A stretch of DNA of 63,976 nucleotides, filler included, from Malassezia furfur (taxonomy: Eukaryota), in the NCBI GenBank assembly GCA_052055015.1. It is 5 parts of 5 records of this genome, joined end to end, with 100 filler letters (N's around TTAATTAATTAA, not from the genome) between each part and the next. Parts side by side here need not be neighbours in the genome. Positions count along the whole stretch, not along the records: positions 40,840 to 54,282 come from JBQJIT010000316.1; 4 more parts are not named here. The stretch is one strand, 5' to 3'. The notes below the pieces were generated by a model. That model was not told the origin of the DNA. It made no database searches and was given only the letters and a program-made list of their open reading frames with translations. The number at the start of each line of letters is the position of its first letter. Positions within the stretch are counted from its first letter, which is position 1. Below, piece by piece: positions 1 to 60,638 of this stretch. The position numbers and the translations under genes are program-made.

Positions 1-972
1 GCGCGCGCCGCTCGCGCTCGGCGGCGAGAGCGCCTCGCACGCGAAGAGGCCGAGCGTCTCGCGCGCCGCAGCCGCGAAGACCGCCTCCGCGACCGCGAGG
101 AGCGCATCCTCGCGCGTGAGCGGCGCTTCCAGGAGCGCTCGCGTAGCCACACGCCCATGGCCCAGGGCGCCCGAGATACCGAAAAGCCCGCTGCCGAGCC
201 GCCCTCCGATACCGACTGGCACTTGCGCTGCGAGGTGTGTGGCATGGACGCACACAACCCGCCGGGCGAAGACAACGTCGTGGCGTGTGAGCGGTGCGGC
301 GTCTGGCAGCATACCGAGTGCTGGGACCGCCGCGACATCAATGCAGGACGCGCGCCGCGCGACTGGGAGCAGGTCGACTTTGTGTGCAGCACATGCGCCG
401 CACAGGCAAACGCCGCACCGTCACAGCCGCAGGAGCCATCCGCCGCCACGCAGGCATCGGTTAAGGCCGACGATGATGCCCACGATGCGCCGCGGCCCGT
501 CGCCATGCCGGCGATGCCGGCGCAGCCGGCGCCAGCACCCCTCACAGCGACGCTACCGAGTGTGCCGACGACGCCTGTGCCGCCGCATATGCCCGGCCCC
601 ACAGGGGCGCCTAGTGCCGTGCCCGGCGCGGCGCCTGCACAGCCCAGCGCCCCGATGGCGCCGTCCATGGGCGGAGGTGCACCGAATGTCCACCCAAGCA
701 CCCCGCTCGCACACCCGGCATGGCCGCCCGCATCGCCAACGGGCGCACCGTCGGGAATGTATGCCTCCCCGCATCCCAGTGGCGTGCCGCATGCCCGCAG
801 CACGCCGGCCTACTCGCCGCCGCTGGGGATGCGCAACTATTCGTCTCCAGGCTCCTTCCCGATGCGAAAAAACACGGCGCCATCGCCTCTTTCGGGCGCC
901 ATGAGCCCGGGCACGACTGTGCCTAATCTTCATCTCAACGCAGAAGCGCCGAACCCAGCGCACCCCCCATAG
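1..972 (+). CDS. PHD-finger protein, 5' partial (frame open from base 1)
   Basis: C4HC3 pattern CEVC...CERC..WQHTECW...CSTC followed by a Pro-rich tail; upstream frame encodes an R/E-rich coiled coil. Confidence 0.8.
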   Translation, partial: ARAARARRRERLAREEAERLARRSREDRLRDREERILARERRFQERSRSHTPMAQGARDTEKPAAEPPSDTDWHLRCEVCGMDAHNPPGEDNVVACERCGVWQHTECWDRRDINAGRAPRDWEQVDFVCSTCAAQANAAPSQPQEPSAATQASVKADDDAHDAPRPVAMPAMPAQPAPAPLTATLPSVPTTPVPPHMPGPTGAPSAVPGAAPAQPSAPMAPSMGGGAPNVHPSTPLAHPAWPPASPTGAPSGMYASPHPSGVPHARSTPAYSPPLGMRNYSSPGSFPMRKNTAPSPLSGAMSPGTTVPNLHLNAEAPNPAHPP

Positions 973-40839: not shown

Positions 40840-43429
40840 ACGCGTGCGTGCGTGGGCGGCGCAGCGGGGCGTGGCGCCGACGCCGCATGCGCCGCCCAGC
40901 TCGCTTGCGCCCGTGTCGAGCGCGACGAGCGGCGCCTCGGCAGAGCTCGAGGTCGGGCGGCAGCACATGACGACGCTCGCGCTGCACGTCCTCGTGCCGA
41001 CGCGCGGCGACCTTGTGCCGGATGCGCGGGAGGATGCGGTGCACGCGCTGGTCTACACGCGCATGCAGGACGCCGAGGCCGATGCGCCGCACGCGTACAC
41101 CTACGACACCGGCGTCGTGGTCGTGTCGGACGCGCCGGCCGTGCGGCTCGGCCTGGCGTGCACGGTGCACGTCGTCGAGGACGAGGCGGCGCTGCTGACG
41201 ATGCTCGTCGACGTGGTGCGCACGCTCGACCCCGAGATCCTCACGGCGTACGACACGGAGCGCGACGCATGGGCGTACGTTGCGGCGCGCGCCGAGCACG
41301 CGTACGGCTACGACCTGCTGCACGACCTGGGCCGTGCGCGGCGGCGCGCCGCGGGCGCAGCGGCGCACGACCGCTGGACGGCGGCGCGTGCGTCGCCGCT
41401 GCGTGTGCAGGGGCGGCACGTGCTGAGCATTGGGCGTGTGATGCAGGGCGAGGTGGCGCTCCCGCTGTACACGCTCGAGCACGTCGTCTTCCACGTGCTG
41501 CATCGCCGCGTGCCGCACTACACGCACGCGACGCTCACCGCGTGGCTGCGCTCGGCGCGCGTGGCGGACCGGGCGCGCGCGCTGACGTACGCGATCCGGC
41601 GTGTGCGCTATGCGCTCGAGCTGCTCGAGCGCTCCGAGACGCTCTTCCGCACCGCCGAGTTTGCGCGCACGTACGGTATCGACTTCTTTTCGGTGCTGAC
41701 GCGCGGCTCGCAGTTCCGCGTGGAATCGGTGCTGCTGCGCATCACCAAGCTGCAGAGCTTTGTGATGCCCTCCCCGAGCCGTGCGCAGGTCGGGCAGCAG
41801 AACGCGGCCGAGTGTGTGCCGCTCGTGCTCGAGCCGCACGCCGCGTACTATCGCGACCCGGTGCTGGTGCTCGACTTCCAGTCGCTGTACCCCTCGATGA
41901 TGATTGCGTACAACCTGTGCTACTCGACGTGCCTCGGCCGTGTCGCGCCGTTTCGTGGCACGTACAAGCTGGGCTTTACCACGCACGCACCCAAGCCCGG
42001 TGCGCTGCGTCGCCTGCAGCACCACGTCGCCGCGATGCCGAACGGCACGCTGTTTGTCGACCGCAGCGTGCGCGAAAGCACGCTCGCCCGCATGCTGCGC
42101 GAGGTGCTGGCGACGCGCGTCATGATCAAGCACGCGATGCGTCAGCCCCACGTCAGCAAGGCGCTCGCACGGCGCTACCAGGCGCAGCAGCTCTCGCTCA
42201 AACTGCTTGCCAACGTCACCTACGGCTACACGGGCGCCACTGCCTCGGGGCGCATGCCCTGCGTCGAGATCGCCGACGCCATCGTGCAGTGCGGCCGCGA
42301 GACACTCGAGCGCGCCATGGCACACATTGAGGGCACGCCGCGCTGGGGCGCGCGTGTCCTGTACGGCGACACCGACAGCCTCTTTGTCGTGCTCCCGGGA
42401 AAGAGCCGCGACGCGGCGTTCGCCATCGGCCGCGAGATCGCCGCAGAGATCACGCGCGCGAACCCGGATCCGGTGCAACTCAACTTCGAAAAGGTGTACC
42501 ACCCGTGCGTGCTGGTGGCCAAGAAGCGCTACGTCGGCTACAAGTGGGAGACGCCGTCGCAGCCCCGGCCCGTGCTCGACGTCAAGGGCCTCGAGACGAT
42601 CCGCCGCGACGGGTGCGTCGCACTGCAGCGCATGCAGGAGACGTGCATCCGCCTCCTGTTCGATACCCAGGACCTGTCACTCGTCAAGCGCTACTGTCAG
42701 CGGCAGTGGTCCAAACTGTACGCAGGGCGTGTGTCGCCGCGCCACCTCCTCACCGCGACCGCCGTGCGCCTCGGTACCTACGCCGGCACGCTACCGCCCA
42801 GCGCCGCACTCGCTGCACGCGCGCTCCTGCACGACGCACAGCGCGCGCCGCACGCGGGCGAGCGCATCCCGTTCCTCGTACGCCACGGACCGCCCACACA
42901 CAAGCTCGCGGACCTCGCCGTCGATCCCTGCCACGTGCTTCTTCACCCCGACACGCGGCTGCACGCCGACTACTACGTCCGCCGCGTGCTCGCGCCGGCG
43001 ATCGCGCGCATCTTCAACCTGCTCGGTGTCGACGTGCTAGCGTGGGTCGACGAGTTGCCGCGCACGCGCGCAGCAGTGCCGAGCACAGCGCTTGTCGCCA
43101 CCACGCCGTTCACCGTCGAGGCATGCATGGTCTGTGGACATACGACGCAGCACGGCGTATGCCAGGACTGCATACGCAACCCGGAGGAGTCGCTTGCCCG
43201 TGCCGCACTTGCGCTGCGCAATGCCGAGCGCCGGCAAATGGCGATCCACGCGCAGTGCACGGCATGTGCTGATGACGGCCTCGTCGAGCGACCGCCGTGC
43301 CTGTCGGTTGAATGCCCGGTGGCCTATGCGCGCGCCCAGACCGACGCCGAGGTCCACACACACACCACACGGCTCAGCGAGGTTGAAAAACACGTTACGC
43401 GGTCCGTTGAGGACCCGTGGGTATGGTAG
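40840..43429 (+). CDS. REV3: DNA polymerase zeta catalytic subunit, 5' partial
   Basis: TRGSQFRVES, LDFQSLYPS, KLLANVTYGYT, YGDTDS, KKRYVG, C-terminal Cys motifs. Confidence 0.95.
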
Positions 43430-43446: not shown

Positions 43447-46272
43447 CTAGGCCCGCACCGCCCGCATCAGCTGCCGCGCCGCCACAATGTTGCACGCCAG
43501 CGTCGCGAGGTTGGCGTCGGCGACAATTACCTCGGGCGAAAATTCCACGCCAAACGCGTCCTGGATGCCGGCTGCGATGTGGCGCACCTGGTCGTGCCGC
43601 CAAAACACCAGGTCGTCAGGATCCTCGGAACGGTAGGCATTCGCATCCTGCGGCGGCGGCGAGTCAGCCAGCGCAAAGTGCACAATCTTGGACAACGATG
43701 CATAGGTCTCCGCGTAAGACTCGCGATCATGCGGCGTGTCGACGTAAATTTCAAACGGCTCGCTGCGCGCCAGCACATCATGGCTTCCGTCGTGGTGGTA
43801 GCGCAGCTCGTAGAGGCCCGTGCGCCATGCCAGCTTTGCCCCACGGAACACACTGATGCCTTCGACCAGGTCCTCGGCCTCATTCACATCCGAGGCACCC
43901 GCCGTGCCCAGCGGGCCACGCTCGGCGCCCGCATGCTTGTCGCCCACCCATTCTTGCTCCGCAATACCGATCCATTTGCCCCGACTCGACACGCGCGTCA
44001 CCAGTAGGCCCATATCGTCGCGCCCGCTCGGCTCCTTGTCAAATGCCGACACGAGGTACATCCCAATCCAGTCGCGGCGTGAGTGGTTGCGAGGCGCCGT
44101 CCAGCGAACCGAGATCGACTCGCCGAGGTGGTAGCGCGGCGCCTGCGTGTTGGGTGAGTCCACCAACGCGACGCTGTACTTGGTGCGGTCCAAAGTGCGC
44201 ACCTCGTTGCCGGTGCGCTTCGACAGCAACCGGTCGGTGTGCTGGATGACGAGTGCTTCGGTATTGTTCACCAGCTTACCCACGCTGGGCTTCTTCTGCG
44301 AGAGGAATTGGTCCACGGCCTTCCTGGCCTGCGACTGCGTGCGGCGCAGCGTGTCCTGCACCTCGCGCACCGTCGATGCACCGCTCGCATTTTTGAACAG
44401 GAAGGCATTGCGCCGCGCAATCTGCTTCATCTGCTTCGTGACGCTCGACTCGACACGGACTTCCTCGCCGTACACCTTGCGCATGTGGGGGTCCTCAACG
44501 TAGCTTAGGAACCACCAGTGCGACAGGGTGGACAGGATCGCCGCGCATGTTACCAGCGGACTGCCGCTGATCAGCGCCATACCAAAGAACGCCGCACCGC
44601 CCATGGTCCGCTCGGGGTTGTTCAGGAAACGGTAGATGCCCGTGTACGATAAGCGCCGGGGGTAGTCGGTCACGAAAAAGTCGCCGTACAGCCACCCAAA
44701 CGGTCCCAGCACGCGGAACGACGAGCGTGCGCTCCAAATGTGCAGCAGAATTAGCAGCACACCTAGGACGTGGCGCAGCAGCGCCGTGCCCGCAGGCCAC
44801 GCCGCATCGACGGGCATGTAGCAGCGGTACGCAAGCATGGCAAACGACACATACACCATCACCAAGCTGGTGTTGTAGATTGCCTTCCAGTGTTCAAACG
44901 CCTCGTACACCGCATCGCGGGCATCGGCAAATGGATAAAACTTGAGGAAGTGGCGCACGATCCACGCATCGCGCGACTGCGCCGAGAGGGCCATTCCGAG
45001 ACCAAACGTATGGTACACACGCCAAAAGAGCGCATTCCCACACAGCAACACCAGTGCCATGCGGGGGCCTGTGTTGTACAGCACGAGTGGGACAATTGCA
45101 TACGCACACAGTACGACTAGCAGAAAGTCGGTTGCACGCATCAAGTCCAGGTGCGACAAAACCACCGCATCGCTGTGGAAAAGCCGGTGGTGCAGATCGT
45201 GTACATTGGGCGGCGTCGACGCCGTTTGGGGCACGGATTCCGAATCTTTGGTCGGCTGGCTCTGCTTCTGCGAGACACGCGCCGCGATCGGACGCTTCTC
45301 GCCATACACCCGCTCCATGTGGGGATTTTCGAACAACACCAGGAACAGCAGCTGCGAGGCATGCGCGGCCAATGACACAAACAACACCGTGTAGCTCCCA
45401 GTAAGCAACGATAGACCATAATAGCCAGCGTAGCCGATGCTGTACATGGGGTCAGGCGCAACCTCGTATACGCCGTCAAACACGAGGTTCTGCAAGCACA
45501 GGAAGAAGCAGTCGCCCCAGTACCAGGCATAATCCTTCACAACCCGATGCGCATCCAGCTTGACCCATATGTTGAACAGGATCAAAAGCAGCCCAGCCGT
45601 CCAGCGTACCACAAACAGGAACGTACCCAGTCCGCGTGTGCCGTGCAGATTGGACACGCCAAAGAAGAAGTACGCAAGGAAATCATTCAGCAGAATCACA
45701 TCCACCATCGATCGGAAAAGTAACCAGGTGTTGTACTCAAGCGGCATTTCTTCAAGCTTGTACTGCTTGCCCATCTTGGTAACCAGGTGCTGTTTTACCC
45801 ATGGTGCCATCTTGGGATTCCGCTTCACGTCCATCCAACCCCAGCGGTCCACCAGTTTGACAAGCCATTGCGACTTGCTCTGTTGCACCAGGAGGTATCC
45901 AAGCCCCGCATTATACGAGATGCGCCAAAAAGCAAAGTACACCATGAAAAAGACGCGGGCCTGTGCACGCGACACGGTGAAGAAGATGGCTACCTGGATC
46001 GCTAGGGTGAATAGCGTGAAATAGTCCAGCGGCGTCTTAGGTAGATCAGGGCGGAAGATAGAGCTGAGCATGTCCGGCGTCTCTTGGACATGGAAGAGGC
46101 GCCCGTCGGGCGTGCGACCCAGCACAGCACCCTTCTTTGACCCAACATTCTCCGGCTCCTCTGACGTCGACTCCGCTTGATTAGCCTTCACGGTCTCAGC
46201 AACAGACACACGCTGACGCAGACCATCTTTGCCATTTACAGAGGCATCCAGTGCCGTACTGTCAGCATTCAT
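43447..46272 (-). CDS. CHO2: Phosphatidylethanolamine N-methyltransferase
   Basis: GRTPDG..F.V..T.DM, KLDAHRVVKDYAWYWGD.FF, GWLYGDFF, GIYRFLNNPE. Confidence 0.95.
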   Translation of the reverse strand: MNADSTALDASVNGKDGLRQRVSVAETVKANQAESTSEEPENVGSKKGAVLGRTPDGRLFHVQETPDMLSSIFRPDLPKTPLDYFTLFTLAIQVAIFFTVSRAQARVFFMVYFAFWRISYNAGLGYLLVQQSKSQWLVKLVDRWGWMDVKRNPKMAPWVKQHLVTKMGKQYKLEEMPLEYNTWLLFRSMVDVILLNDFLAYFFFGVSNLHGTRGLGTFLFVVRWTAGLLLILFNIWVKLDAHRVVKDYAWYWGDCFFLCLQNLVFDGVYEVAPDPMYSIGYAGYYGLSLLTGSYTVLFVSLAAHASQLLFLVLFENPHMERVYGEKRPIAARVSQKQSQPTKDSESVPQTASTPPNVHDLHHRLFHSDAVVLSHLDLMRATDFLLVVLCAYAIVPLVLYNTGPRMALVLLCGNALFWRVYHTFGLGMALSAQSRDAWIVRHFLKFYPFADARDAVYEAFEHWKAIYNTSLVMVYVSFAMLAYRCYMPVDAAWPAGTALLRHVLGVLLILLHIWSARSSFRVLGPFGWLYGDFFVTDYPRRLSYTGIYRFLNNPERTMGGAAFFGMALISGSPLVTCAAILSTLSHWWFLSYVEDPHMRKVYGEEVRVESSVTKQMKQIARRNAFLFKNASGASTVREVQDTLRRTQSQARKAVDQFLSQKKPSVGKLVNNTEALVIQHTDRLLSKRTGNEVRTLDRTKYSVALVDSPNTQAPRYHLGESISVRWTAPRNHSRRDWIGMYLVSAFDKEPSGRDDMGLLVTRVSSRGKWIGIAEQEWVGDKHAGAERGPLGTAGASDVNEAEDLVEGISVFRGAKLAWRTGLYELRYHHDGSHDVLARSEPFEIYVDTPHDRESYAETYASLSKIVHFALADSPPPQDANAYRSEDPDDLVFWRHDQVRHIAAGIQDAFGVEFSPEVIVADANLATLACNIVAARQLMRAVRA

Positions 46273-47610: not shown

Positions 47611-49348
47611 ATGGCGCCCAGCTTGGAAATACCTGGGGTATGTCTTTCGTGGTGGACCACTAATACGCAGAACAACTTTGTCGAGTTCACCAAAGAAGGT
47701 GATGCTCAGCAGCTGGTAAAGAATGCCCTATTGTGTTCCCGTTTGAATGAATCTCTCCAGTCTTCAAGACGTCTGGAAAATGTTTCTTGGCGAATGTGGT
47801 ACAAGCAGCATCGCTCGGACAAGGTAAGCGCCACACATTTTCACACGAAAGGCTAACTGGCAGTCAATGAACATGGAGCGGCGAAGGTCCATGTTGGTGA
47901 ATGCAGAGATTGATGTGATGAATATTTCGCCGTTGCGGACGCTGGACGAACATGTCTTGGCCAACGCTATGGGTTCGACCATGGACGTGGATATGCTGCA
48001 CGGCAACCAGACCGCGCGGACCCTCCCTTTCCTTGCGGGCGGCACCGATATGAATCACTGGACTAACATCCCGGCATTGAACGATACCAAGCATTTCCAC
48101 GGTGTTTTCCAAAACACGCAGCCACCAGAACAGCACGTGTCACCGGATATGCTCCAGCTCTTCCCTGCCCCGCCGAATGAACAATTCTGTGGCATCCCGG
48201 GCTGTTCATATGTGGACAACGGCAACAGCCTGTTGCGCAATGCACTCGGTATTACGGGCGATGAGCACGACACCTCACGAAAGGAGGAACAGGAAACGTA
48301 CAACTATACAGGCTCGGTGGCGCCATCTGGCCAAGACGAGGAGCCCCCGCAGAAAGGCGAGGCTGGTTCAGCTCCTACAACACCTCGGCGGCGATCTGAG
48401 GTAGCCATGGATGCTACGCCCGGATCGTCTGCCCCCACCGACGACGTTCCCACCTGCAGCAATTGTGGAACGCATAATACCCCGTTGTGGAGACGAAACC
48501 ACGACACGCTCCTCCTTTGCAATGCTTGCGGCCTTTACCTCAAGATCCACAAAACGCATCGCCCGTTGTTATTGCGCCAGCGTCAGCAAATTTGCAGCGC
48601 TTCCCGCGCTAATGGACAAGACCGTGGTTCGCGTTCGACTAGCGTGACCAGCTGTACAAACTGTGGCACGCGTGTGACGCCATTGTGGCGCAAGGATGAC
48701 AACGGCGCCATGTTGTGTAATGCGTGTGGACTTTACTTCAAGCTGCACCGCGAGCACAGACCGCCCCGCTACCGAGCAGACATTATCCGCAAGCGTGCTC
48801 GGTACGATCCGCGACAGCGCACCAACAGCGACGAAGGACAACCGTCTCCGCGGTCAGAACCCATTTCGCCTGCGCAGAGCACCCCCCAGAGTATGGGCTA
48901 TGCTGGTCCGTCTAGTGCGGGTGCCATGTTGCAATCACGGGATCCGACGTCGGATTCGCCCACCGTAAAACGGCATTCGACGCCCTCCTTGCCTCCGCCA
49001 GAGAGTTGCAGTCCCGTACAGGACGCCAGTCGTTTTTTGAGCTCAAGCCAGGGCCCGCTGGCCGCCGAGCTTGCGTCGCTGGCATGCTGTGGCAACGACG
49101 CATGTACCGGCCCGATCCTACTGAACGACGGTGCGCCCGAGTTTGTGGAGAACCCGCACGAGTACCACATGCACGACCAGCCCCACTTGATGTTCGGTAT
49201 GGACTTCAATATGGATACCATTATGCGGCCTCCTCACGGGCATGTGAATCGGCACTCGCTATGGCCCGTATACCAGTCCTCGGAGATGTATCCTCCGCCG
49301 GAGAACAAGGTGGATCCCAGTTCTAGTGTATCTCTACCGCTGCACTAA
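47611..49348 (+). CDS. GATA transcription factor with N-terminal DUF1752 motif and two zinc fingers; intron 47824-47863
   Basis: RRLENVSWRMW; CSNCGT..TPLWRR..LCNACGLY and CTNCGT..TPLWRK..LCNACGLY. Confidence 0.9.
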
Positions 49349-50025: not shown

Positions 50026-52209
50026 ATGCCACGCATTCCCATTCGTGTTGAGCCCTACAGCTCGCCCGCAAAACAACATCGCCATTACAAATGCAAGAGA
50101 GACCAGGTCCTACGCGCGCTAGGCAAAGCGGCCTACATTAACGGCAGCCAGTTTGCCATCTTGTTGGTTTCCGCACGCGGCGACGTCGAGACATACGCGA
50201 GCGACGCTTTGCAGGACCATTTGGACGACTGGTTCATGAAGAGCGGCGTTGCCGAAGAAGCACGGCAACTGACGCTTGATAGTGTCCCTGAGCGGCGCAA
50301 CCCGCCGATGGGCAATCTCACCGCTGATGACCTCCTAGACGATGGTCAAGAATCTCTGAGTGGTGCGGCGACACCCGCCGTATCACGCATGGCGGACGAC
50401 CCCTTCCTGGAGTCGTGGTCGACCCTCGCCGGCGGCTCTGAAAAGATGTCTGGGGCTGAGGACTGGTCAAAGCTGCTCAAGCGCACCGATCTGACTGACG
50501 AGGCCCAGCCGATAGGTGAGGCAAGTGGATCGGCGGGCAGTCCGCCAGTGCCGATGGTGCCGCAGATGTCGACGCCGGTTCGCCCGCCAATGCGTCCGCG
50601 GACCGGGAGCACGGGCCGTGTCGCTGCGAACGCGCACCAGCCCCAACATACCATTGTGCTGAAGAACGAGGCAGAGCGTACGGCGTTCCTCGAGATGCGG
50701 TTCGGCCAACTGCAGCAGGTCATGTGCAAGATGATCGCCAAGGAGTGGATCAAGGTGATCGAGCCCAAGAAGCAGACGCGCTACCCCTACAACAAGGGGG
50801 AAGAGGCGAAGCCAAGCTGGTGGCCGAAGGACGTGCGTCACAAGGAGCCGGACCACCTGATGAAGCCGGAGCGCCACGCGCTGTTGCTTGCCATGCTCCG
50901 CCTGAACCAGGCGCGGATTGCTCGTCTGCAGCTAGCCACAGCTGAAGTCGTGGTACAGATTAAGTCTGGACGTGTGAGCCTGTTGATGGACATCTACCGC
51001 GTGGCTCGCGAGGAAGAGAATTTACGGGACCAAAACCTGGATATTAACACGCCTATCACCGTGGGCGTCTCCTCGCTTGAGGGCTGGGAAGGCGAGTCCG
51101 TTCCAGCGGCAGATCCCCCGGCTGCTGCTGAGAGCGCAACACCATCGACGAGTCAGGCGCGTGAGGACTATGCAAACGCCGAATCGCTTTCTCGACGCCT
51201 GAGTACGCAGCGCAAACGACCTCGCTTCGACTCGGCGCCCGAAGAGACACCAGAGCGCACGGGAGGAGCACCCATGACATGGACACCGATGAATGACCCG
51301 TATAATCCGTACCCCACCATGAGGGGTGTGCCGCACATGCCACAGCACGCCATGTCGGGTGGGGTCCCTGTTCGGACCATGTCGGGGATGAATGCACCGC
51401 CTTCGCAGCCCATGCAGCCCGCGTTTGACTCGTCGGATTTGTCAAGCTATTCACCGCTAAACCCCCGCGGGGACTTGCCCCCTACGACGCCGATACCCAC
51501 GGCGGCACCACACGGAGCTTTGGCGCAGTCGCCCGTCGCAGGTCGTACGAACCTGGTCAATTACGGCACGGTCGAGCCCGAGCCGCAGCGCAGCTCGTTG
51601 CCTGGTGTTTTGCCGGTCGGCAACGTGGGACAGCCTATGAAGTCAACCCGTTCGGCACCTGGGCAAATTCCCAACTCGCCCGAGGCGTGGCAAATGTTCC
51701 AGACGCATCCGCATGGCCAGTCTTTCCGTATGAGTCAGCCGGCACCATCGCCACTGGCGATGCCGCCGCATCGCGAGGGCGACCACCGCATGTCATGGGC
51801 GTTTGCCCACCCCGCTTCGCCGATGTACCCCGGAAATGCGCCAGCACAACCGACATGGGGCATGCCAGAGACGCCCATGCAGCAACAGCCGATGCAGAAC
51901 CTTGGAATGAGTGTAGGGTCCAGCGACGTGCGCTTCTCCCCGTCGTTTGACGCGAGTTTCAGCAACTCCGGCCCTATGACCCCCAGCAATATGTCGATGC
52001 ACCTGCACCCGGTCCATCCGCACATGCAAGCGCCGGGCGGTGCGGCCATGGGCTACCATGCGCCGCCGGGCAAATCGAGTACAATGCTTGGTACCGACCT
52101 CGCCTCGGTACCGCCGGCGCAGTCCAGTGAGATGGGCCCCTTTGATGTGAAGTTGGAACCCAAACCCAACGTTCGTTACCACAGCATGGAGGAATGGCCG
52201 TGCCCCTGA
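50026..52209 (+). CDS. DUF2841/YDR124W-like protein with a divergent MADS-like N-terminus; probable transcription factor
   Basis: LQQ..CK.IAKEWIKVIEPKKQTRYPY....KPSWWP.DVRHKEPDHL.KPER; P/Q/M-rich tail. Confidence 0.85.
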   Translation: MPRIPIRVEPYSSPAKQHRHYKCKRDQVLRALGKAAYINGSQFAILLVSARGDVETYASDALQDHLDDWFMKSGVAEEARQLTLDSVPERRNPPMGNLTADDLLDDGQESLSGAATPAVSRMADDPFLESWSTLAGGSEKMSGAEDWSKLLKRTDLTDEAQPIGEASGSAGSPPVPMVPQMSTPVRPPMRPRTGSTGRVAANAHQPQHTIVLKNEAERTAFLEMRFGQLQQVMCKMIAKEWIKVIEPKKQTRYPYNKGEEAKPSWWPKDVRHKEPDHLMKPERHALLLAMLRLNQARIARLQLATAEVVVQIKSGRVSLLMDIYRVAREEENLRDQNLDINTPITVGVSSLEGWEGESVPAADPPAAAESATPSTSQAREDYANAESLSRRLSTQRKRPRFDSAPEETPERTGGAPMTWTPMNDPYNPYPTMRGVPHMPQHAMSGGVPVRTMSGMNAPPSQPMQPAFDSSDLSSYSPLNPRGDLPPTTPIPTAAPHGALAQSPVAGRTNLVNYGTVEPEPQRSSLPGVLPVGNVGQPMKSTRSAPGQIPNSPEAWQMFQTHPHGQSFRMSQPAPSPLAMPPHREGDHRMSWAFAHPASPMYPGNAPAQPTWGMPETPMQQQPMQNLGMSVGSSDVRFSPSFDASFSNSGPMTPSNMSMHLHPVHPHMQAPGGAAMGYHAPPGKSSTMLGTDLASVPPAQSSEMGPFDVKLEPKPNVRYHSMEEWPCP

Positions 52210-53103: not shown

Positions 53104-54282
53104 ATGCCGTCGACCTTCTCGTCCTCAGAGAAATCGACGATAAAGTCAGCCCTCGCATCATCCTGCAAGATCATTACTGCTACGCCCGCGCGCATCTATG
53201 TCGCGTACCCGACCCCCGACCGTTGGTACTACACCGGCGTCGAAGGTGCCCTTGCGTTCGTGCGTGACGCCAAAGGCAACTTCGGCTTCCGCGTAGTAGA
53301 TGTACATGTGCGTACATGTATTGTTAATCGCAGCACCGAGGCGACATTACGTGGGAACACGAGCTCTACGAGGACTTCTACTTTTACGAAGACAAGCCCT
53401 ACTTCCACACATTTGCCGGCGATGTACGTCTAATACTTATATTCAGGAATGTATGATTGGGATCTGCTATGCAGATGAATCTGGTGCGGCCCAGCTGTAT
53501 AAAAAAGTCCAGAATCGCGCCAAGTATGGTACGTTTGCGCTGTGTGCTCACATCCAGCCAAATCTTCGTCCAGCTCTTCGAGCTTTGGATTCGCCAAGAA
53601 ACTGACGAGCAAGCTCGACTGGTCAAGAAACTCGCACGGCGAAGATAAGCGCACCAAGACCGATGCACCGCGTACAAATGCGGCAGACGAGCCCCACTGG
53701 AACGGACTCGTGGATCAGCTGGGATCCATGGGCGTCTCGGAATCCGATATTCAAAATAACCAAGACTTTATCCGAGACTTTTTGGCACAAAAAAACCAGT
53801 CGGGGCAGCCCAATGGCACAGCATCCCCTGCAGCTGCGCCCCCGCTGCGCAACCTCCCTCCGCCTGTGCCGTCAGCGTTTGGGAGTGCGTCGAGTCCGGT
53901 GCCTTCGGCTGCGCCGTCGATCCCTCAGCGCACCACGACCGAGAACTCGAGTGCCCCAGCCGGACCTCGTATGCCGCGCACTGCACCGGCACCGCCAGCC
54001 CGGCCCGGTGCAACAGGAAGCGGCGCCCCGCCGCCTGTGCCGCCACCGCCGAGTTCCCGGACTTCTCGTGCACCGCCACCTGTGCCGTCGCGGGGAACAA
54101 CCGGCCGGGCGCCTCCGGCGGTTCCGCCCCCGCCGCCATCCCGGGGTGGTGTCCCACCGCCGCCTCCGCCGTATCCGCCTTCGAGCAGCGGAGGAGCGCC
54201 ACCTCCACCGCCTCCGCCGCCGGCTGCAAGGGCTGGGGGTGCGCCACCGCCGCCGCCGCCGCCGCCGCCTGCCATGGGAGGG
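53104..54282 (+). CDS. LAS17: WASP/Las17 homologue (WH1 domain plus poly-Pro), 3' partial, with three introns
   Basis: ARIYVAYP.P..W.YTG..GA, WEHELYEDF.F..DKPYFHTF.GD, polyproline tracts. Confidence 0.88.
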
Positions 54283-54382
54283 NNNNNNNNNNNNNNNNNN
54301 NNNNNNNNNNNNNNNNNNNNNNNNNNTTAATTAATTAANNNNNNNNNNNNNNNNNNNNNNNNNNNNNNNNNNNNNNNNNNNN
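54283..54382. other. Artificial contig linker
   Basis: N-run with TTAATTAATTAA. Confidence 0.98.
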
Positions 54383-56359: not shown

Positions 56360-57586
56360 CTACTCGTCCGCGTCCATGTCCATGTCGGCCATCACGTCGC
56401 CGCCCGAGTGCAGCCCGTAACCATCCTCGCGCGCGTGGAAGTCGAGCTCGGACGAGTCGTCACGCGCGCCCATGTCGTCGTCTTCGTCCAGGTCGTCGTC
56501 CGCACGCGTCCGCGTGTGCATCGGCTTGCCCGCGTCGCGCTGGTGCGCCGCACGCATCGTGTCCGCCATCAGGTTGGGGTGCGCAGGCGCCGACGTGCCG
56601 AACGGCACCGACGGCGCATCGCTGAGCGGCACCGACGCGTTGCGCGCCTTGCTCGCCATCAGCTTGTCAAAGTTGACCTGGTCGCACCCCAGCAGCCCCG
56701 ACGACGGGGGGCTCACCGCCGCGGGCCACAGCGCCTTTTCCTCGGGCAGCGAGCGCGCATTGGAGTCCATCCCCACCAGGATCGCGGCGGCCTCGAGCAG
56801 CTGCACCTGCTGGTGCTTGCTCATGAGGAACTTGGACGCCTCTTTCCAGTACATGGTGTGCTCCTGTCTGTTAGCCATGTAGATACATACCCATCGGTGC
56901 TTCACCAAGCAGCTCGGGTGCCGGTACACTTTCGAGCAGCTCTCGCACTTGTGCAGCAGCTGGTTCGAGCCGTGCGACCCCGACAGCTCGGAATCGTCAC
57001 CGTGCGGACGCGGCGACGGCGAGCCGCTCTCGCGCTTGTGCGTCGGCGCCCCCATGCCGTACTGCCGCGCGGCGGCCTCCATCGACCCCATCGAGTGCGT
57101 CGGCGCCGTCGAGCTAAACCGCGGCGCGCCGGGCGCCGGCACATCGGTCTGCCCTTGCCGCGCGTCGTACTCGTCCGCATGCGCGGGCTTGGTGTGCGCA
57201 AAGCTCTGCATCGGCGCCGGCATCCGCGCACGCTCCGACGCCGAGAGCGACAGCGCCTCGCCGGCGGCGCCAAACGACGTCGAGAAGCCGTTGCTGTACG
57301 ACGGCGACCGCGCGCGTGACGCGCTCGGCGGGACACGCAGCGACGGCGTCGCATCCAGGCCTGCTGGGCTGCGGTGGTTGTTTAGCACGATCCGGCCGGC
57401 ATCGGCCGGCGGCGGACTCGCCGCATAGCTCTTCTTGACACGAAAGTCGGCATGCGACGGCGAGCCGTATGTGTGCCCCGCGTGCGGGTACGTGACCGTC
57501 TGCGTGAGCGCCGAAGGCGCAGGCATACGTACGGTCGTCGCACCGCCGTGCTCGGCGTGTGCCTTGGACGCTGAATACGAACTCAT
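56360..57586 (-). CDS. C2H2 zinc-finger protein; in-frame intron 56864-56890
   Basis: HKCESCSKVYRHPSCLVKHRW|EH followed by SKHQQVQLLEAAAIL. Confidence 0.85.
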   Translation of the reverse strand: MSSYSASKAHAEHGGATTVRMPAPSALTQTVTYPHAGHTYGSPSHADFRVKKSYAASPPPADAGRIVLNNHRSPAGLDATPSLRVPPSASRARSPSYSNGFSTSFGAAGEALSLSASERARMPAPMQSFAHTKPAHADEYDARQGQTDVPAPGAPRFSSTAPTHSMGSMEAAARQYGMGAPTHKRESGSPSPRPHGDDSELSGSHGSNQLLHKCESCSKVYRHPSCLVKHRWVCIYMANRQEHTMYWKEASKFLMSKHQQVQLLEAAAILVGMDSNARSLPEEKALWPAAVSPPSSGLLGCDQVNFDKLMASKARNASVPLSDAPSVPFGTSAPAHPNLMADTMRAAHQRDAGKPMHTRTRADDDLDEDDDMGARDDSSELDFHAREDGYGLHSGGDVMADMDMDADE

Positions 57587-58927: not shown

Positions 58928-59072
58928 GGTGCGCCGTCGTGCTGGGGCCGGTCGCGCTGCCCCGTGCGCATTCGCCACGTGACGCGTGCGTCAGCGGCGG
59001 GTGCAATCACGCAATCGAGGGGCCGTATGGAGGGGGGCCGCGCGAAGAATCTGCGGCCCCGCTGGGCGCACG

Positions 59073-60638
59073 ATGCTGGGAGTGGTGCGTGGCGCAATGG
59101 CGCCGCCGAGCGTGTGGCGAGGCGCCTGGCACAGTGTGCGGCGAGCGGGTGCATGGCGCGCGTATGCGAGCGGGCATGGGCTCGAGCCGATGCCGCTGCC
59201 GTGCGTGGACCAGCACGAGCTGCGGGAGCGGCAGCTGCGTGCGGAGCGGCAGCAGGGTGTGCCGCCGCAGAACGAGTCGACGCAGCCGGCGCTCGGGATG
59301 GGCCCCGAGCCCGCGTACCAGAAAGTGGTCTCTGGGTATAAGACGTTTCGATACCCCCACCGCTATGCGTTGGACTATGGCGGTGCGCTGCCCGGATTCC
59401 AGATTGCGTACGAGACGTGGGGCACGCTGAACGAGGCACGCGACAATGCGATTTTGCTGCATACCGGCCTGTCCGCGAGCTCGCACGCGGCGAGCACGCC
59501 GAGCAACCCCGCCAAGGGGTGGTGGGAGGACTTTATCGGCCCCGGCAAGGCGCTCGACACGAACCGCTTCTTTGTGATCTGCACCAACGTGCTCGGCTCG
59601 TGCTTCGGGAGCACGGGCCCGTCGAGCGTGTGCCCCGTGCTGGGCGAGCCGTACGCGACGCGCTTCCCGATCCTGAGCATCTTTGACATGGTGCGCGCAC
59701 AGTTCCTGCTGCTCGACGACCTGGGCATCGACCGGCTGTACGCGAGCATCGGGTCGAGCATGGGCGGCATGCAGAGCATTGCGGCGACGCACCTCTTCCC
59801 CGAGCGCGTGCAGCGCATGGCGAGCATCAGCGGCACGGCGCGCTCGTCGCCGAGCGGCATTGCGCTGCGCTACTCGCAGCGGAGTGTGCTGATGGCCGAC
59901 CCCAACTGGAACCGCGGGTTCTACTACGGTCCCGACCAGATGCCGCCGCACACGGGCATGAAGCTCGCGCGGCAGATTGCCACGATCACCTACCGCTCGG
60001 GCCCCGAGTGGGAGCAGCGGTTTGGGCGCGTGCGGCGCACACTGAACCGCGACCTGGCGGTCGCCGAGGCGCGGGTACCGGCGCTGTGCCCCGACTTTTT
60101 GGTGGAGACGTACCTCGACCACCAGGGCGAGCAGTTCTGCCTGAAGTACGACGCGAACTCGCTCATCTACATCAGCAAGAGCATGGACCTGTTCGACATG
60201 TCGGACGATGCGCTCGCGCAGCTGGGCGAGACGCGCATGCTCGCGCACGGCGACGACGGCCGCCTGCCGATCCCCGCGGACGAGGACGGTGTGGAGGAGG
60301 GCGGCGCGCCGTTTGCGTCGGACAAGCGGCACCGCAAGCACATCACCACGATCTCGAACCCCGGCGCGCACTACTATGTGCCGTCGCTCGCGCGCGGGCT
60401 GAGCCGGCTGCGGCGCACGCCGTCGCTGATCATTGGCGTGCAGAGCGACATCCTGTTCCCCGTGGAGCAGCAGCGCGAGCTGGCCGAGTGTCTGCGGATG
60501 AACGGCAATGCGTCGGTGATGTACTACGAAATGGATGCGCCGCATGGCCACGACAGCTTCCTGTACGTGTTTTTCTTTCGCTAACGCAGCATCGATGTGG
60601 CCAACGTGGGCGGCGCGATCAAGGGCTTCCTCTACTGA
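59073..60638 (+). CDS. MetX-family serine O-acyltransferase (Cys2-like), probably mitochondrial; intron 60563-60589
   Basis: [48 protein letters not shown]; Arg-rich presequence. Confidence 0.85.

Follow-up and report, generated by a model that had tools for sequence, protein, structure and literature searches.

Within a 63,976-nucleotide stretch of DNA (filler included) from the genome of Malassezia furfur (assembly GCA_052055015.1), hereafter the window, lies a gene whose 727-residue product probably acts in the nucleus as a sequence-specific transcription factor with the build of animal NRF1: a MADS-like domain at the N-terminus is followed, after a long linker, by a helical domain (PF11001) that is predicted to have the fold of the plant EIN3 DNA-binding domain. 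It joins an NRF1-like architecture, an EIN3-type domain and a MADS box recognizable in sequence in one fungal protein. An earlier note on this DNA had read the range 50026..51020, which encodes residues 1–331 of the 727-residue product, as part of an NRF1/EIN3-like, MADS-derived protein, and the analysis described here supports that reading for both fold and architecture; most of the computational checks that the note had suggested turned out in its favour. The gene and the relevant parts of its product are as follows.

50026..52209, plus strand: the whole open reading frame (ORF), 727 amino acids (aa) plus stop, intronless; M. furfur CBS9595_000871
50026..50289, plus strand: N-terminal domain, aa 1–88, predicted fold of a divergent MADS box or NRF1 dimerization domain
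50290..50655, plus strand: linker, aa 89–210, predicted to be disordered, with no conservation
50656..51033, plus strand: PF11001 helical domain, aa 211–336, predicted EIN3-type DNA-binding-domain fold
50809..50826, plus strand: KPSWWP motif, aa 262–267, within a long loop; P263, W265, W266 and P267 are 100% conserved
50836..50874, plus strand: most conserved basic stretch, R271-H272-K273-E-P-D-H277-L-M-K280-P-E-R283 at a loop-helix junction, a candidate DNA-contact element
51211..51225, plus strand: RKRPR motif, aa 396–400, a candidate nuclear localization signal
51034..52206, plus strand: tail, aa 337–727, of low complexity and rich in P, S, A, G and M, a candidate activation region

The ORF product and an NCBI entry, 'hypothetical protein CBS9595_000871 [Malassezia furfur]', likewise of 727 aa, are 100% identical from the first residue to the last, and the intronless gene model is thus the accepted one. 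Comparison of the whole protein with the Pfam profiles places PF11001, the former DUF2841 and currently named 'YDR124W-like, helical bundle domain', at aa 213–328 with a score of 139 bits (E 1.1e-40; gathering score 31.3 bits), and no other family appears at E<=10. The DUF2841 domain and the KPSWWP motif that had been claimed from the sequence are therefore both present, the motif lying at aa 262–267 inside the domain.

Of 8000 candidates scored in a homologue search with aa 1–340, 188 proteins reached E<=0.001. PF11001 is present in all of the best 120 of these 188, every one of which is uncharacterized, and those among the 120 with a named source all belong to the Basidiomycota (Ustilaginomycotina, Pucciniomycotina and Agaricomycotina) or the Taphrinomycotina (Pneumocystis, Taphrina, Protomyces and Saitoella). 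The N-terminal 60–70 residues are nearly invariant in 64–69 orthologues drawn from both groups, with the consensus MPRIPVRxEPYxSPxRQHRHYKxKRDQxLRALGKAxYINGSQFAIxWVSARGDVETYAS in a 69-sequence alignment; in the same alignment neither the linker, for which the predicted local distance difference test score (pLDDT) falls below 50 across most of aa 102–203, nor the tail, in which no Pfam family was found, is conserved.

The MADS-like domain and PF11001 are an obligate, ordered pair across this family. When 1.84 billion representatives were searched by phmmer with just aa 1–95, no more than 112 proteins came up at E<=0.001, and PF11001 lies downstream in 42 of the 44 matches that were most distant or new. 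Local hidden Markov models (HMMs) made from the family alignment were also run on 185 stored family proteins, a set biased by having been gathered with the M. furfur protein itself as query; both domains were found in 174 of the 185, the N-terminal domain came first in all 174, and the linker between the two ranged from 57 to 388 residues (median 140). Divergent forms of about 1000 aa come from the Microbotryomycetes (Rhodotorula and Sporobolomyces). In the ascomycete proteins from Tuber indicum (P0196) and Lipomyces kononenkoae (P0197) the local HMM detected no N-terminal MADS-like domain at E<=10, and their helical domain matches its own local HMM at E 1e-54 to 1e-59; the helical domain thus also exists on its own. 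Two proteins, P0181 (593 aa) and P0182 (1581 aa), are the only ones without PF11001 among the 44 scanned distant N-terminal matches; P0181 is recognized by the local N-terminal HMM and contains no WWP motif, and P0182, recognized by neither local HMM, was probably matched by chance.

Models of aa 1–340 and of aa 1–95 alone were made with AlphaFold2 using the family alignment. In aa 1–88 they contain a basic arm (MPRIPIR), a helix (14–39), two strands (44–48 and 54–58) and two further helices (60/63–72 and 75–86), giving a confident alpha-beta-beta-alpha-alpha unit with pLDDT 80–96 in the 340-residue model and a mean of 83 in the shorter one. The predicted unit has the elements of the MADS fold, namely an N-terminal arm, a long helix, two antiparallel strands and a second helix, and equally the fold of the NRF1 dimerization domain. 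Two independent structure searches placed exclusively MADS or NRF1 chains in their top rows. The top Foldseek match is SRF (E 0.023, probability 1.0), followed by MCM1, MEF2 and NRF1, and when 345 Foldseek candidates were re-examined the best 21 rows were all NRF1 or MADS chains, with scores of 6.5 for NRF1, 6.0 and 5.8 for SRF, 5.6 for MCM1 and 4.2–5.1 for MEF2, and 2.6 for the next row; the tool's own criterion treats NRF1 and SRF as joint best structural matches. The earlier note, whose quoted residues 1–59 match the ORF translation exactly, had aligned this region without gaps to the MEF2-type MADS box and had held that a lack of profile or structural similarity to MADS or NRF1 proteins would refute it. 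Structural similarity of this kind is what the searches returned, and the register is borne out by structural alignments of 64–68 residues, in which model residues 5..73 or 7..74 pair with residues 5..72 or 7..72-73 of MEF2A/B/D at an identity of only 8–9%; across SRF, MCM1, MEF2 and SEPALLATA3 (PF00319) identity to the fungal domain is 8–20%. Given the near-invariant N-terminus and the exclusively MADS and NRF1 top rows, the MADS resemblance is more than chance.

Traces of the same relationship are visible when family members are compared with 177,635 PDB sequences by phmmer. The Puccinia orthologue (P0088) matches only SRF (twice) and MCM1, at E 0.26–0.74, and the Calocera orthologue (P0082) can be aligned to SRF over 71 residues with no gap (E 0.32). 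Provided that the 92-residue chain of SRF corresponds to the 132–223 core, as we take it to, residue 3 falls on SRF 143 in the sequence alignment and residue 7 on SRF 147 in the structural one, and the two registers agree. No MADS chain was matched for three of the five members searched in this way, the M. furfur protein included. Two de novo repeat proteins that stand above SRF in the P0082 search arise through ten sub-threshold repeats and were set aside as spurious, as were two haemagglutinin chance matches, the only ones obtained with orthologue P0072; an Atlas search with aa 1–95 gave no usable match. Nine positions in residues 3–30 are basic in 88–100% of 160 distinct sequences, the pattern to be expected of an arm and helix that touch DNA.

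These features would also suit a MADS factor of the classical type: the N-terminal dimer would be the main reader of DNA, at an A/T-rich, CArG-like site, and PF11001 would be an accessory that binds partners or makes secondary contacts and not the determinant of specificity. The sequence register with SRF and MCM1 is kept; in 127 of the 174 two-domain proteins, as in MEF2, the MADS-like domain sits right at the N-terminus, with its start among residues 1–5; and near-invariance extends to the arm MPRIPxR and to the basic pair K24-R25, the pair standing opposite the R-K of the SRF K-R-K in the P0082 alignment. Moreover, the M. equina and M. caprae orthologues are named 'MADS-box domain-containing protein' in UniRef. 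Classical MADS proteins lack the second, EIN3-type domain that always follows the fungal MADS-like one. We consider this explanation unlikely.

The PF11001 domain is modelled with high confidence (pLDDT 83–98) as two helices (215–228 and 231–245), a long Pro/Trp-rich loop (246–279) and three further helices (280–291, 298–306 and 317–335). The model shares the core fold of the EIN3/EIL DNA-binding domain (4ZDS), including the Pro/Trp-rich loop with its (P/K)PxWWP motif. A WWP motif, nearly always in the form [KR]PxWWP, is present in 173 of the 185 stored proteins, and its P, W, W and P are 100% conserved among 146 distinct domain sequences. The conserved residues around it are mostly basic (K235, K239, K243, K248, K249, R271, H272, K273, H277, K280 and R283), more than 12 basic positions fall within helix 231–245 and the loop 246–283, and positions 271, 272, 273, 277, 280 and 283 are basic in 91–98% of sequences.

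The resemblance to EIN3 can also be glimpsed without a model. Among 85 family proteins scanned against Pfam at E<=10 (1 protein), E<=5 (40) or E<=0.1 (44), the EIN3_DNA-bd profile (PF04873) appears sub-threshold in nine, with 12.5–17.4 bits (E 0.0029–0.091) over profile positions ~119–178; the gathering score of 27 bits is reached in none of the 85, and the M. furfur protein has no match. The best PDB sequence match of the Tremella orthologue (P0115) is 4zds_A (E 0.63), with RPAWWPEG opposite PPPWWPNG, so that the WWP motif ascribed to EIN3 beforehand can be seen in the HMMER alignment itself. When this alignment is numbered from the chain range, the P of the EIN3 WWP would be Pro216; the available part of the EIN3 structure paper gives Pro216 as one of three critical residues (PMC4564277). 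Our own motif alignment would put EIN3 Lys245, in basic domain III, opposite K280 (95% conserved). With the M. furfur sequence as query, phmmer found no match at E<=10 among the PDB sequences, either for the whole protein or for aa 205–340 alone. A search of the same sequences with the 69-sequence family profile gave only RAD23B matches, which were discarded as low-complexity.

The order of the two domains is that of NRF1. As described in the available part of its structure paper, NRF1 consists of a MADS-like dimerization domain, a flexible linker and a helical DNA-binding domain, the last being a three-helix unit (aa 201–284) in which TGCGC is read by helix alpha5 (R206) and by linker2, a long loop (aa 218–249) that includes N242 and R244 (PMC10810270). 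The NRF1/EWG/P3A2 proteins (PF10491; 8K4L, 8K3D), whose hallmarks include R206, N242 and R244 as base-contacting residues and a GCGC half-site, have this layout in common with the fungal protein, and one NRF1 chain aligns across both domains of the model. An Atlas cluster has PF10491 as its best neighbour (score 0.81), the sole lead to NRF1 at the sequence level. The KPxWWP motif is presumably found in animal NRF1 as well. On the pattern of linker2 in NRF1 and of basic domain III in EIN3, the basic stretch R271..R283 is a candidate for DNA contact.

EIN3/EIL proteins (PF04873; 4ZDS, 1WIJ) are unlike the fungal protein in having a second WWP copy and a different N-terminal dimerizing region. 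The fungal protein could be EIN3-like only, with a helical domain that binds DNA, an N-terminal domain that regulates or binds a partner and does not homodimerize, and a layout that is like that of NRF1 through convergence. Against this, the relatives of the N-terminal fold that were found here and have solved structures (SRF, MCM1, MEF2 and the NRF1 dimerization domain) are all obligate dimers through that domain, and both the domain order and the chain that spans the two domains point to NRF1; we regard the proposal as improbable.

The reading that we favour, a transcription factor built like NRF1, suggests how such a protein might work. The MADS-like domain (aa 1–88) would pair two chains via a shared four-stranded sheet, and its basic arm and first helix may touch the DNA backbone or minor groove. 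The long flexible linker would let the two EIN3/NRF1-type domains (aa 211–336) each reach a half-site in the major groove, where bases might be read by helix 231–245 together with the [KR]PxWWP...RHKEPDHLxK loop. The RKRPR motif at aa 396–400 could serve as nuclear signal, and the P/S/M-rich tail may act as an activation region that recruits the transcription machinery. The tail had been described as rich in P, Q and M; its composition over aa 341–727 (16.8% P, 11.6% S, 9.0% A, 7.8% G, 6.7% M and 5.2% Q) agrees with this for P and M, but Q was overstated and the tail is better called P/S-rich.

Several points weigh against a factor of the NRF1 type. Neither SRF-TF (PF00319) nor Nrf1_DNA-bind (PF10491) was matched by any of the 85 family proteins scanned with Pfam; the sequence matches that cross from one family to another all have E values of 0.003–0.74, none of them significant alone; and searches of the PDB sequences with the family profile and with the protein's own sequence gave no EIN3, NRF1 or MADS chain. 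The structures used are predictions. The fungal linker, with its median of 140 residues, is far longer than the ~28 residues of NRF1, and the authors of the NRF1 structure saw, in the part of their paper available to us, no apparent evolutionary relationship between NRF1 and SRF (PMC10810270). Lastly, the literature on DUF2841 (a preprint and its mBio version), in which such genes adjoin the Aspergillus fumigatus baf genes, calls the role of the domain unknown. A protein that does not bind DNA at all, nuclear or cytoplasmic, in which the folds are reused for scaffolding or RNA binding and the fold matches are functionally meaningless, would be in keeping with a family that has no member of tested function and with a Pfam text that speaks of a helical bundle only, and the search tools carry the warning that sharing a fold is no evidence of function and that a middling Z is common for helical models, yet we think it very unlikely and continue to prefer the NRF1-like factor.

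The fungal proteins with a MADS-like domain and PF11001 may be true relatives, possibly orthologues, of NRF1/EWG, and together with EIN3/EIL form one ancient eukaryotic superfamily of helical DNA-binding domains with a 'WWP-loop', a proposal that we advance tentatively and would place somewhat short of an even chance. Within fungi, a quick maximum-likelihood tree of 42 rows, chosen out of 198 stored proteins for having a source-named organism, sets each of five taxonomic groups apart from the others by a branch, which takes four changes, the fewest that can be had. The tree, in which the Pucciniomycotina branch has a support of only 56, is consistent with vertical descent of a single old gene. 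The EIN3 fold has been described as novel, with EIL3 its only PDB relative, in the available part of the EIN3 paper (PMC4564277), and in a 2022 study, whose sampling was restricted to plants and algae, the EIL domain was traced back to streptophyte algae; EIN3 goes unmentioned in the available part of the NRF1 structure paper (PMC10810270).

If the superfamily is real, the EIN3 and NRF1 domains share an origin that predates the split between plants and opisthokonts, the NRF1 dimerization domain is tied by descent to the MADS box, a link doubted in the NRF1 structure paper, and the fungal protein is a missing link that combines a MADS box recognizable in sequence with a full-size EIN3-type domain. 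Should the favoured reading hold, the EIN3 DNA-binding fold would no longer be confined to plants, animal NRF1 would gain a fungal counterpart in genetically tractable organisms, and MADS boxes would be bridged to the NRF1 dimerization domain at the level of sequence. A DUF conserved in Basidiomycota and early Ascomycota would likewise become a candidate transcription-factor family that is absent from catalogues of fungal factors; it spans skin commensals (Malassezia), human pathogens (Pneumocystis and relatives of Cryptococcus) and crop pathogens (rusts and smuts).

PF11001 is also what the M. furfur protein has in common with YDR124W of Saccharomyces cerevisiae and AFUB_079030 of A. fumigatus. 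The available part of a 2016 HHsearch survey contains one clause on the former, 'a DNA-binding domain in Ydr124wp', with the kind of domain unstated (PMC5091641). Apart from that clause, we found no paper that ties PF11001 to NRF1, EIN3 or MADS proteins in a literature search that lay mostly outside subscription journals.

The gene is surrounded in the window by genes for a two-finger GATA factor, a phospholipid methyltransferase, a family-B DNA polymerase, a CRAL/TRIO protein and a histidyl-tRNA synthetase. All of them are commonplace among eukaryotes, and genomic context was rejected as a clue to function. The following features were recorded there.

40967..43429, plus strand: family-B DNA polymerase, delta-like, with a C4 zinc finger; the ORF probably lacks its first exon(s); housekeeping
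43447..46272, minus strand: 941-aa protein with two phospholipid methyltransferase domains; housekeeping
47867..49348, plus strand: GATA protein of 493 aa, directly upstream of the gene, with two zinc fingers (Pfam GATA, E 1.3e-28, 2 stretches)
53663..54334, plus strand: ORF of 223 aa, no Pfam family at E<=0.001
56360..57586, minus strand: ORF of 408 aa, no Pfam family at E<=0.001
59007..60545, minus strand: ORF of 512 aa, no Pfam family at E<=0.001

Some of the 223-, 408- and 512-aa ORFs may be in the wrong frame or contain introns. The GATA gene recurs in a deposited protein of M. cuniculi (P0035, 1027 aa), which contains GATA and PF11001 with the N-terminal domain at residues 442–520, and in which both neighbours are annotated as a single gene; either two gene models have been merged there or, at the least, synteny is conserved.

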